From: a virus
Taxonomy: Duplodnaviria > Heunggongvirae > Uroviricota > Caudoviricetes
DNA: 26,193 nt
Virus record (IMG/VR): IMGVR_UViG_2671180431_000011
Reading direction: 5' to 3' (one strand)
Shown: positions 16,285 to 18,696 of the stretch, in pieces
How positions within the stretch are numbered: position 1 is the stretch's first letter
Layout: each line of letters begins with the position of its first letter
Translations under genes and position numbers: made by a program
The notes under the pieces: generated by a model
Told to the model about the DNA's origin: nothing
What the model saw: only the letters and a program-made list of their open reading frames with translations
Database searches by the model: none

Positions 16285-16289
16285 ACTCT

Positions 16290-16309
16290 AAGTGCGCGTT
16301 AGCGCACTT
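16290..16309. terminator. Perfect palindrome between convergent int and cargo gene C (possible bidirectional terminator)
   Basis: AAGTGCGC-GTTA-GCGCACTT at 16290-16309, overlapping the stop codon of gene C (16308-16310). Confidence 0.4.
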
Positions 16310-17105
16310 ATTCAAATAGTTCAGGGAATACTAATTGTAGTGAATTCATGAATTTATCAATATCTTCAGGAGGTTCTTGCTCACGAAACCACTTGTCACA
16401 CACTTCATTGACATAAATTTTCGCTTGTCCGACCTTCAAGGATTTATTCTCTCGTCCACTTTTATCAGCAGGGTTATAGTGCAAACTTAAAATAAAATTT
16501 CTAACCTTTACTTCTTTTCCCTTTTTTGAAACTATATTGTAGTCAAAATAACATTCATCACCGGTAAACGCATTTGCTATGGGGCTCTTTTTAAAATGAT
16601 ATCGGCACTCATCAAGCCTATCAGAAATAGCCTTATATTTTTCAAAATCACCAGAGCTAAGGTAGCTGAACCAATTTTTAAAGTAACTTAATGAATCAAG
16701 TTTCTGATGGTAAATAAAGAAACCTGCATGTTTCTCATCAGAAATATATCTTGTTACTAACTGTAACATGCCTTCAAAGACACCATTATACGAATTCCCT
16801 CTTTTTGCTTCAGCGAGCCAAGTAAAGCTCTGATCACGATCCTGAACTGTAATATCGACGGAACCATTAGATTTTGTTTGTTCAGATGCGTTGTACCCAA
16901 CACCTTTGAGAAATAAAACCAGTAAATTAGTGATCTTATCTTCATCATCTGAATAATATTTATCCGCAGTCTTCTCAATATGCTTAATTGCATTATTTAT
17001 ATCGGCATATAGACTTTGTACAAACACATCCTCATCGAATGGCTTCAAGTTTACCAGCGCGGCTAATTCGGCAGGTGTTATATTTTGAAGAAAATTATTT
17101 GACAT
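16308..17105 (-). CDS. Cargo gene C: hypothetical protein with PD-(D/E)xK-like nuclease motif (265 aa)
   Basis: ATG at 17105 overlaps the gene B stop by 11 nt. Motif GSVDITVQDRDQSFTWLAEAKRG (D ... ExK). AT-rich coding sequence. Confidence 0.6.
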   Translation of the reverse strand: MSNNFLQNITPAELAALVNLKPFDEDVFVQSLYADINNAIKHIEKTADKYYSDDEDKITNLLVLFLKGVGYNASEQTKSNGSVDITVQDRDQSFTWLAEAKRGNSYNGVFEGMLQLVTRYISDEKHAGFFIYHQKLDSLSYFKNWFSYLSSGDFEKYKAISDRLDECRYHFKKSPIANAFTGDECYFDYNIVSKKGKEVKVRNFILSLHYNPADKSGRENKSLKVGQAKIYVNEVCDKWFREQEPPEDIDKFMNSLQLVFPELFE

Positions 17106-17526
17106 TTAATATACAGTAAAAAGAAATGTTATTAACATCGAAATCATCTATTTCGCGCCCAGACAATAAACTGATCGGAGAAATATCACTAATCAGAGCA
17201 TTATAGTAGCATTCTGCTGAAATAGGGATTTCTTCACCATCAAAATCATAATAGCAATAAGTTATATTAAATAATTTAGAATGTGCACCACAAAAATAAC
17301 GGACTAACTTTAGCAAATCCGAGTCCGATTCACAGCCTGCCGCTTGCCTTAATACATTAATCGGGTAATAATTTTTATCATAATTATTTTGAATGAAATC
17401 CAAAACATTATTGAATAGAAAGATATCTTCTTCAGGAAAGATATCTTTCATTTCATCCAATAATATCCTTTGTTCAGACAAAAGCATCATTATGACCTTG
17501 ATTCTATCATTTTCGTGAGATGACAT
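17095..17526 (-). CDS. Cargo gene B: hypothetical acidic protein (143 aa from ATG 17526; track ORF begins at a TTG at 17532)
   Basis: Overlaps the gene A stop (17507-17509) by 20 nt and the gene C start by 11 nt. No family recognised. Confidence 0.55.
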   Translation of the reverse strand: MSSHENDRIKVIMMLLSEQRILLDEMKDIFPEEDIFLFNNVLDFIQNNYDKNYYPINVLRQAAGCESDSDLLKLVRYFCGAHSKLFNITYCYYDFDGEEIPISAECYYNALISDISPISLLSGREIDDFDVNNISFYCILNVK

Positions 17527-18559
17527 TTTCAATTAAACCATTTAATGAGATTGTATCTTCAGGAAAATCAACATAAAATTCGCCACAAAAATTATCATCC
17601 AACCAAGATTTCTTATTTGGATCTAGACCCAATTCTGTAAAGTCACCATTATTTCTGTAAAATCTTACGGCTACAGCACGTGGTGTATAAATATCATTTC
17701 TTTTCTTATTAGTAATCTCGACATCTCGAGCTTCATATGTCGGATCTTTGCGGCCAATGACATTAGCATCACAACCTGTATTAGAACCAACATAAATTAT
17801 CTGAACTGCTTTCCCGAACGATCTATCAGTAATAATGCTATTGATCACATTATAAAAATTCAATTGTTTGAAATGAATAGTATTATTAGTACTGATGAGC
17901 ATATCAAAAAATTTATTACGCACCGATGCAAGCGCTTTTGCTGTCTCCCGTTTCCCTAAATTTTTTGGAAGACGATACTCGATCCTATTTTTATTATGGG
18001 GAACAAATACTGTTATAAATTGTTGCTGTGGGGTATACGATAGTCCTAAACCGCGACTTCCCTTAATCTTAACACTATAAACATATGAGAAAATAAAAGC
18101 AAAGCCATCGCCAGTATCAATTAATTTAGTCAGATAAAGACCTTTGACATTGTTCCCAAGTGAATTCCCATCATATAACTTTCTTGGATAAGAATTTTCA
18201 TACCTTGAATCAGTTACACTTGTACTAAAAACATGTTGGATCACACTTTGGAAATTTGGGTCTTGTGTTTCGTCAATAGAATAATAGTTACTACCAGAAA
18301 TTATTATTCTATCGATCATTTTCTCAAGTGAATTTAATGTAGCATTAGGAAATGCAGCTGTTGGATTCTGTATAGATGCCTCGATTGCCTTCAAAACCGC
18401 ATCCATTCCACCTTTAACAGGTGGAAATCCATACACAGTTGCTATCTGAGAAATAAATGAATATAGATTGGTCTGCTCAAGCGCAGTAATCAAATCAGAT
18501 AATACTTGTTGACTATTGTTGGCAACAACAGGCGTAGCAAATGCGCTAGATGAATTCAT
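17507..18559 (-). CDS. Cargo gene A: hypothetical protein (350 aa from ATG 18559; track ORF begins at a TTG at 18565)
   Basis: First gene of a three-gene overlapping operon. No Walker A or other motif recognised by eye. AT-rich. Confidence 0.6.
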   Translation of the reverse strand: MNSSSAFATPVVANNSQQVLSDLITALEQTNLYSFISQIATVYGFPPVKGGMDAVLKAIEASIQNPTAAFPNATLNSLEKMIDRIIISGSNYYSIDETQDPNFQSVIQHVFSTSVTDSRYENSYPRKLYDGNSLGNNVKGLYLTKLIDTGDGFAFIFSYVYSVKIKGSRGLGLSYTPQQQFITVFVPHNKNRIEYRLPKNLGKRETAKALASVRNKFFDMLISTNNTIHFKQLNFYNVINSIITDRSFGKAVQIIYVGSNTGCDANVIGRKDPTYEARDVEITNKKRNDIYTPRAVAVRFYRNNGDFTELGLDPNKKSWLDDNFCGEFYVDFPEDTISLNGLIENVISRK

Positions 18560-18696
18560 GCTCAAGTCCAGTAGTTCCGTTTACGACGACTCAATCAAGA
18601 TAATGTTAAGGGATGATATTAGCTAGTTTTTTTCTCTCAAAATTTTCTCAAGTTGAGCCGAATCACAGACAACGTTTAACATAACTAGTTGAATAG

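Follow-up and report, generated by a model that had tools for sequence, protein, structure and literature searches.

What is the function of the three genes that separate the integrase gene from the attachment site of a prophage in the viral record IMGVR_UViG_2671180431_000011 (IMG/VR)? The stretch analysed, 26,193 nucleotides (nt) long and henceforth referred to as the window, carries int (15298-16284, plus strand), which encodes a tyrosine integrase specific for serU and matches the Pfam family Phage_integrase, and serU itself, a tRNA-Ser(CGA) gene detected by ARAGORN (18697-18786, minus strand). An initial annotation, made from the sequence alone, proposed that the three intervening genes A, B and C (henceforth, the trio) are an undescribed defence cargo in a prophage hotspot. 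Our analysis indicates that the trio is probably prophage-borne anti-phage defence cargo and a deep-branching member of the superfamily of DS-21, a system with measured activity against phages. This reading is based on homology to DS-21, published computational predictions for homologues of A and B, the slots in which the trio is found, the co-occurrence of the three genes, the fold of C, low ratios of nonsynonymous to synonymous substitution rates (dN/dS), a foreign base composition and the variation among alleles.

Genes A (17507-18559), B (17095-17526) and C (16308-17105) lie on the minus strand, in the same direction as serU and directly downstream of it. A, the first gene of the operon, encodes 350 amino acids (aa) from an ATG or 352 aa from an upstream TTG, and its product has an isoelectric point (pI) of 8.6. 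B encodes an acidic protein (pI 4.3) of 143 aa from an ATG, a start supported by the N-terminus MSS... that is kept in homologues, and C encodes 265 aa. As read from the sequence, the stop of A overlaps the start of B by 20 nt (ATGTCATCTCACGAAAATGA) and the stop of B overlaps the start of C by 11 nt (ATGTCAAATAA). The coordinates, strands, sizes and overlaps of the initial annotation were exact, and gene order, strands and overlaps agree with its description of one compact operon convergent with int. Its view that the trio is AT-rich and compositionally foreign also holds, as the G+C content is 0.32-0.35 over 16501-18500 versus about 0.45-0.57 in the rest of the window, and a recount returned the same 18 G+C at 17101-17160. 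Compared with a copy of 79% DNA identity in E. coli L37, the window genes have dN/dS values of 0.069 (A), 0.111 (B) and 0.071 (C), and the values rise to 0.16-0.20 against a variant of 55% identity. These low ratios point to strong purifying selection on A, B and C, and the three genes are therefore not chance open reading frames.

The system DS-21 (working identifier TOXO) was reported in the DefensePredictor study (DeWeirdt et al., Science 2026, PMC13092281; bioRxiv 2025). Its three adjacent genes encode hypothetical proteins of 365, 140 and 211 aa, and those for B and C overlap by 8 nt (PMC13092281, Tables S6-S8). In E. coli MG1655, it lowered the plating of Bas1 by ~4.5 log and that of Bas11 by 2 log, and it led to small plaques for Bas3, Bas9, Bas67 and T3 (PMC13092281). 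We built DS-21 family profiles from 35 viral loci and compared them with the trio. The link is strongest for C, which matched DS-21C by BLAST (27% identity over 201 aa, E 1e-18), by hmmsearch with the C profile (73.8 bits) and by hhalign (98.7-99.6%, score 160). A aligned with the DS-21A family over 258 collinear columns (hhalign 91.2%, E 1e-6, score 53.6), and the two share the motifs S-x-YP, Q-x-F-x-T-[VI]-x-[IL]-P, D-x3-GR, C-x-R and E-L-x-L-P-x-K. For B, the match to the DS-21B family was limited to the C-terminal 60 columns (hhalign 69%, E 4.4e-5, score 34.3), and the two proteins agree in size, position and acidity. The best scores in 40 column shuffles were 19.6 for A, 20.4 for B and 24.4 for C, all far below the real ones, and a reversed alignment of A scored 16.0. 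These comparisons suggest that the trio forms a deep sister clade of DS-21 in which all three components are homologous, B being the least certain.

The organisation of the two systems is similar. In both, the three genes point the same way, abut or overlap and follow one order (365/140/211 versus 350/143/265 aa), and this order is fixed across the loci of either clade. Both ride in accessory slots of prophages, their A and B proteins have no recognisable domain, and their C proteins are of the PD-(D/E)xK type with the same E...D...EAK layout. They differ in that C has ~50 additional C-terminal helical residues, and in their slots: DS-21 lies between Q and the holin gene of lambdoid prophages, whereas the trio clade is found between int and attR, between Q/cos and A of P2, or in a P4-like slot. 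In two of the viral contigs (L037, 6500-12755, and L053), DS-21 sits between a Q-like antiterminator gene and holin/endolysin/Rz genes, on the strand opposite to its neighbours. In another DS-21-like viral contig (L071, 7980-8570), the A homologue is shortened to ~190 aa next to intact B and C genes and is probably a pseudogene or an assembly frameshift. A tblastn search with DS-21A also matched an uncharacterised protein of an Acinetobacter phage, MD-2021a (CAKLQH020000040.1, 25902-26882; H17/H18), with 19% identity over 96% of the query (E 1e-5), so the superfamily may reach beyond the Enterobacterales.

Homologues of the trio had already been flagged computationally. Table S10 of the DefensePredictor study, which holds 1,041 clusters predicted from the E. 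coli pangenome and as yet untested, lists a 354-aa homologue of A (log-odds 5.66) as a "Predicted novel defense gene", together with an overlapping 144-aa homologue of B (WP_024166900.1, log-odds 9.39) (PMC13092281). The representative of this B cluster, WP_139336025.1, is the B protein annotated in E. coli BS15R-A. In that table, the trio family stands as a separate "predicted novel" cluster and not as a DS-21 homologue. Because of these entries and the remote homology of the three proteins to DS-21, least certain for B, "undescribed" was too strong a term for the trio. The link between the trio and DS-21, which comes from the remote homology of three genes, is absent from the published tables consulted on DS-21.

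Other searches returned little. Pfam, NCBIfam and PADLOC-DB v2.0.0 (2023) contained no family that matched A, B or C even at E≤1, single-sequence and profile searches of the Protein Data Bank (PDB) gave nothing for the three proteins, and a megablast search of a phage database produced no match. The sole PHROGs match was that of C to phrog_9664, a group without an assigned function. A literature search by WP accession found no main-text mention of the trio proteins, which are annotated as "hypothetical" in every source. The families are tiny: among 5.8 billion proteins, clustering at 90% identity left 7 clusters for A, 7 for B and 15 for C, and the 7 clusters of B homologues are all unnamed. 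An exhaustive HMMER profile search with A recovered 21 representatives among 1.84 billion proteins. No motif or domain of a nucleoside triphosphatase (NTPase) was detected in A or B, which for A bears out the initial annotation, and the library searches agree with it that the trio is outside the structural, replication and regulatory families of phages.

C is a predicted PD-(D/E)xK nuclease. It has the alpha-beta-beta-beta-alpha-beta core fold of this superfamily, with a conserved acidic residue that opens beta2 and a (D/E)xK motif on beta3; DS-21C has this motif too. The candidate catalytic residues are E55/D56, D84 and E99-A-K101; D84, E99 and K101 are invariant in 16 C homologues, and E55/D56, located in helix 1, are also invariant. 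The fold and these residues agree with the motif noticed in the initial annotation. DS-21C was linked to LmuA_effector_PDDEXK at 94.7% by the HHpred annotation of DefensePredictor (PMC13092281). The best structural matches of C are type II restriction endonucleases of the BamHI/BglII/BstYI/OkrAI group. The structure of A is less clear. Its AlphaFold2 (AF2) model is poor, with a predicted local distance difference test score (pLDDT) of 51, and the core is most like RdgC/TBP-like folds; a weak resemblance to RdgC appeared in two independent structure libraries. Membership of A in the RdgC family was ruled out at the sequence and profile level (0.1%). Five separate stretches of a 933-aa protein (P0048) match the A-family profile, the best at profile positions 119-176, and this segment of A may be a repeatable module elsewhere.

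The trio belongs to the prophage. The attR core (18695-18762) is a 68-bp sequence, identical to the attL copy, that covers the 3' part of serU, and the start codon of gene A is ~135 bp from attR. In E. coli BS15R-A, whose prophage is ~97% identical to the window prophage across most of its length and carries a trio 100% identical to that of the window, the same core recurs at a distance of ~39 kb. We found no further core within the window. The distant attL and the lack of a second core place the trio inside the prophage, and they rule out a tandem island, that is, a separate element between the prophage and the tRNA gene.

Among 5426 complete E. coli genomes, the trio is present in 16, always at serU beside int. 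In 14 of these it is at least 99% identical to the window copy; the other two carry it at 79% identity in a different, Klebsiella-like lambdoid prophage. We scanned 36 loci (homologues and related loci) with hidden Markov models (HMMs) of A, B and C. In all 33 informative loci, those in which the upstream DNA is present, A, B and C are found side by side, never in another order, and abut or overlap, with C as low as 36% identity. The conservation survey that had been proposed as a check thus came out in favour of an intact trio. The int-attR junction of serU prophages is the context in E. coli, Klebsiella-type phages and Atlantibacter, and in Pantoea the trio lies at the end of a different prophage, after tail-fibre genes. 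In P2-like prophages of Serratia proteamaculans and Rahnella and in several viral contigs, it is located between the portal gene Q (cos) and the replication gene A, which is the old/tin locus; these contexts were confirmed by Pfam matches (Phage_cap_P2, Phage_GPO, terminase, portal and Phage_GPA). In a P4-like satellite of Rouxiella, it directly follows a P4-type primase, a Psu-like protein and an Ogr/Delta regulator, and the two genes upstream of C were recognised as A and B by hhalign. P2 and P4 slots were shown experimentally to be defence hotspots (Rousset 2022, PMC9122126). Because it is found in validated P2 hotspots and in a P4-like satellite, the cassette behaves as defence cargo, and a fixed cassette across the accessory slots of unrelated elements fits the usual pattern of anti-phage cargo.

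The relation of the trio to int in E. coli is of another kind. int is present in exactly the 14 complete E. coli genomes with the ≥99% trio, and the variants with 79% DNA identity and 55% protein identity also keep int beside the trio. This identical distribution rules out a variable hotspot behind the integrase in E. coli and indicates that int, the trio and attP form a fixed module in the serU lineage. The hotspot proposed in the initial annotation does not hold for the E. coli int-att gap, which does not swap its content freely. The interpretation as defence cargo stands as regards the operon, the foreign composition, the nuclease and the defence slots, is too strong as regards novelty and is not supported for a swapping int-att site in E. 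coli. Across variants, Int keeps 86-87% identity, whereas the identity of the trio proteins goes from 76-85% in some to 52-56% in others. This suggests exchange or diversification of the trio alleles behind a conserved integrase. An allele range of 52-85% behind a near-constant Int is as expected of defence genes. Such a cassette, bound to an integrase/att module, matters for the definition of prophage hotspots when genomes are mined for systems.

From the known activity of DS-21 and the contexts of the trio, we infer an anti-phage phenotype for the window genes and suggest how it could arise. A single, translationally coupled transcript would yield A, B and C, driven by a promoter beside attR and possibly also by read-through from serU. 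C would be the effector, an Mg2+-dependent PD-(D/E)xK DNA endonuclease. A, basic and with a possible RdgC/TBP-like nucleic-acid-binding core, and the small, acidic B would form a sensing and restraining module, with A as sensor or scaffold and B as adaptor or inhibitor. In the lysogen, A and B would hold C inactive; upon detection of a superinfecting phage, C would be released or activated and would cut phage DNA, and perhaps host DNA too, so that infection is aborted. The parts that A and B play, the trigger and the outcome, restriction or abortive infection, are conjectural.

One natural variant bears on these roles. In E. coli E-ge-1 (NZ_CP158503.1; L072, 3727-4424), an IS1 element is inserted in the 5' end of A, which is annotated as fragments of 44 and 320 aa, and B and C are intact. 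This disruption of A is tolerated by the host. Provided that B and C are still expressed there, C would be harmless even without A, in line with a role of A as sensor and of B as restraint. This is only suggestive, as the insertion may have silenced the entire operon.

Several points weigh against a defence role. The relationship to DS-21 is distant: A and B go undetected in pairwise BLAST comparisons with DS-21A and DS-21B, and the link for B is just 69% over 60 columns. The measured phage resistance (Bas1 and Bas11) is that of DS-21 itself, and 55% of the high-scoring units tested in the DefensePredictor validation had no phenotype (PMC13092281). PADLOC-DB v2 (2023) is blank for the trio. 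A has a poor model (pLDDT 51), whose RdgC/TBP likeness is without sequence support (0.1%). The mechanism outlined above is our own proposal. Finally, the strict linkage to int in E. coli could mean a role in integration or prophage maintenance. We weighed four other explanations, all of which are less likely than anti-phage defence.

The best of them is a toxin-antitoxin (TA) or addiction module, in which C is a nuclease toxin, the acidic B, with or without A, is its antitoxin, and the operon mainly stabilises the prophage or the int-att module instead of blocking phages. B is indeed small and acidic (pI 4.3), directly upstream of the nuclease gene and translationally coupled to it; in E. coli, the trio is strictly tied to one integrase lineage, and it is carried on mobile elements only. 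We nevertheless consider this unlikely, given that the homologous DS-21 gave phage resistance, that the cassette is also found in P2, P4 and Q-S cargo slots unrelated to int, and that three genes with a conserved 350-aa first component are atypical of type II TA systems. The IS1 insertion in A of E-ge-1 excludes A as an essential antitoxin, provided that B and C are expressed there. The TA and abortive-infection readings overlap and are not mutually exclusive.

A dispersed restriction-modification (R-M) pair would make C a sequence-specific endonuclease from which a methylase of the prophage protects self DNA. The structural matches of C to type II enzymes fit this, and the same prophage encodes an orphan N6/N4 DNA methyltransferase (3486-4538, minus strand; Pfam N6_N4_Mtase, E 2e-42), 12 kb from the trio. 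We regard such a pair as very improbable. C is only 11-15% identical to the BamHI/BglII/BstYI/OkrAI enzymes and differs from them in having two obligate partners that do not look enzymatic and additional helical segments at the N- and C-termini, and no methylase lies within or next to the trio in any context examined. The methylase gene itself sits between the Q antiterminator gene (5146-5898) and the lysis genes, that is, in the Q-S "moron" slot that holds DS-21 in other lambdoid prophages.

There is a similarly slight chance that the trio is an accessory of recombination, replication or integration in the prophage's own cycle, for example an RdgC-like DNA-binding protein with a structure-specific nuclease. 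The core of A is weakly RdgC-like (RdgC being a recombination-associated DNA-ring protein) in two structure libraries, and the trio adjoins int and the attP arm. Yet the model of A is of low confidence and the similarity to RdgC is absent at the profile level. Transcription of the trio runs towards int and leads away from the early operons, and its DNA is AT-rich and moron-like. Unrelated phage types and a satellite carry the same cassette, always in accessory slots, and it is missing from most relatives of these phages (present in 16 of 5426 E. coli genomes). A role in counter-defence or host takeover during lytic growth, such as a nuclease that degrades host or competitor DNA, is the least probable: C is a predicted phage-encoded nuclease and anti-defence genes also occupy some cargo slots, but the DS-21 homologue protected a phage-free host, and the trio, with a promoter-like site of its own next to attR, is located outside the late and early operons.

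We also compared the trio with other known systems. The system "hp+hp+hp", which we take to be the one named Rst_3HP in DefenseFinder, resembles the trio in that it comprises three genes without predicted domains in the P2 old/tin hotspot. It encodes proteins of 333, 359 and 227 aa and is active against P1 (Rousset 2022, PMC9122126). The trio is not this system: all nine pairings of the proteins had negative bit scores, and hhalign gave ≤1.2%. Lamassu is similar to the proposed organisation of the trio in that a nuclease effector (LmuA, or NOV_C, the NO VEIN C-terminal domain, of the PD-(D/E)xK type) is under the control of partner proteins. Lamassu has an SMC-like LmuB and an LmuC, whereas the trio lacks them and no ATPase domain was found in A or B, which are unrelated to Lamassu components; the PADLOC Lamassu models did not match A, B or C even at E≤1. 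Hachiman HamA, McrC, CBASS NucC and Can2 systems have helicase, GTPase, cyclase or CARF/SAVED partners, none of which is present in the trio. The P4-hotspot systems Crouga, Bandua, Aernus, Toga, Reve and Hailong (NAR 2026, PMC13586616) do not fit either, a distinction made from their descriptions only. These systems comprise helicase/R-M-like proteins, a nuclease with a kinase, a kinase-nuclease with a repressor, single genes, and a channel with a nucleotidyltransferase (NTase)/HEPN (PMC13586616).

A more far-reaching version of the defence reading, which we put forward tentatively and consider doubtful, is that A and B are a new kind of infection sensor and that the DS-21 superfamily is a mechanistically new class without an NTPase, a signalling nucleotide or a methylase. 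A would then have a DNA-binding fold of an unclassified type, with a clamp core like that of RdgC/TBP, and would keep watch on the ends of phage DNA or on replication intermediates; the acidic B would gate a BamHI-like nuclease. The cassette of the serU lineage could be wired to the integration module via shared attP-arm/operator sequences and serU read-through, so that lysogeny switches immunity on.

If the trio is active as anti-phage defence, DS-21 grows from one validated operon to a superfamily across the Enterobacterales, with hosts that include E. coli, Salmonella, Klebsiella, Citrobacter, Serratia, Pantoea, Rahnella, Rouxiella and Atlantibacter, among others. It moves among five or more different cargo slots, found in temperate phages and in satellites. 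A, B and C, whose families are deeply diverged and have few residues in common, provide a comparative data set that can guide mutagenesis of the system. Interest now lies in the mechanism of sensing by A and B and in the fixed link to the integrase/att module.

The non-coding DNA around the operon holds several candidate signals. The best promoter-like site upstream of A is sigma-70-like (18613-18640, minus strand; TTGAGA, a 16-nt spacer and TATCAT, with 10 of 12 consensus matches). Promoter-like sites in the region are no more numerous than in shuffled sequences, so this site is a candidate only. Between the att core and A there are two conserved blocks (18630-18671, minus strand), TGTCTGTGA at 18663-18671 and TGAGAAAATTTTGAGAGAAAA at 18630-18650, both invariant in four variants whose trio proteins are just 52-56% identical. 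The second block contains two copies of TTGAGA spaced 11 nt apart, and the -35 hexamer of the promoter-like site falls inside a variant-invariant block. These blocks may be arm-type Int or IHF sites of attP, the operator of the trio, or both. A terminator scan and a check of RNA structure from serU to gene A found no terminator-like site and no significant structure. With serU in the same direction as the trio, read-through into the operon would therefore be possible. At the other end, between the convergent stops of C and int, an 8-bp GC-rich hairpin read from the sequence (16290-16309; AAGTGCGC-taac-GCGCACTT) is a candidate bidirectional terminator; the scan passed over it because it has no adjacent T-run.

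The regulatory and lysis genes of the window prophage are of lambdoid type (Rha, Rz, lysozyme, Q antiterminator and a CI-like repressor), and the BS15R-A prophage has a P27-type terminase and myovirus-type tail genes. Neither the immunity region (10804-12340, with the CI-like repressor gene at 11130-11822) nor the leftmost 3.4 kb of the window has a megablast match to the BS15R-A prophage, and the immunity and lysis-proximal modules have been replaced by mosaic exchange. In BS15R-A (L004, 17906-20382), the first gene inside attL encodes a LEM-3-like GIY-YIG protein that could be a cargo nuclease too, and an IS4-family element lies just outside attL. Past serU, the window contains mtfA and a tRNA-Asn gene. 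Diverged direct repeats at 21900-25830 (plus strand), spaced by ~300 nt and multiples thereof and also by 1245 nt, lie where the window matches yeeJ, the inverse-autotransporter adhesin gene of BS15R-A, and probably represent the repeats of its Ig-like domains.

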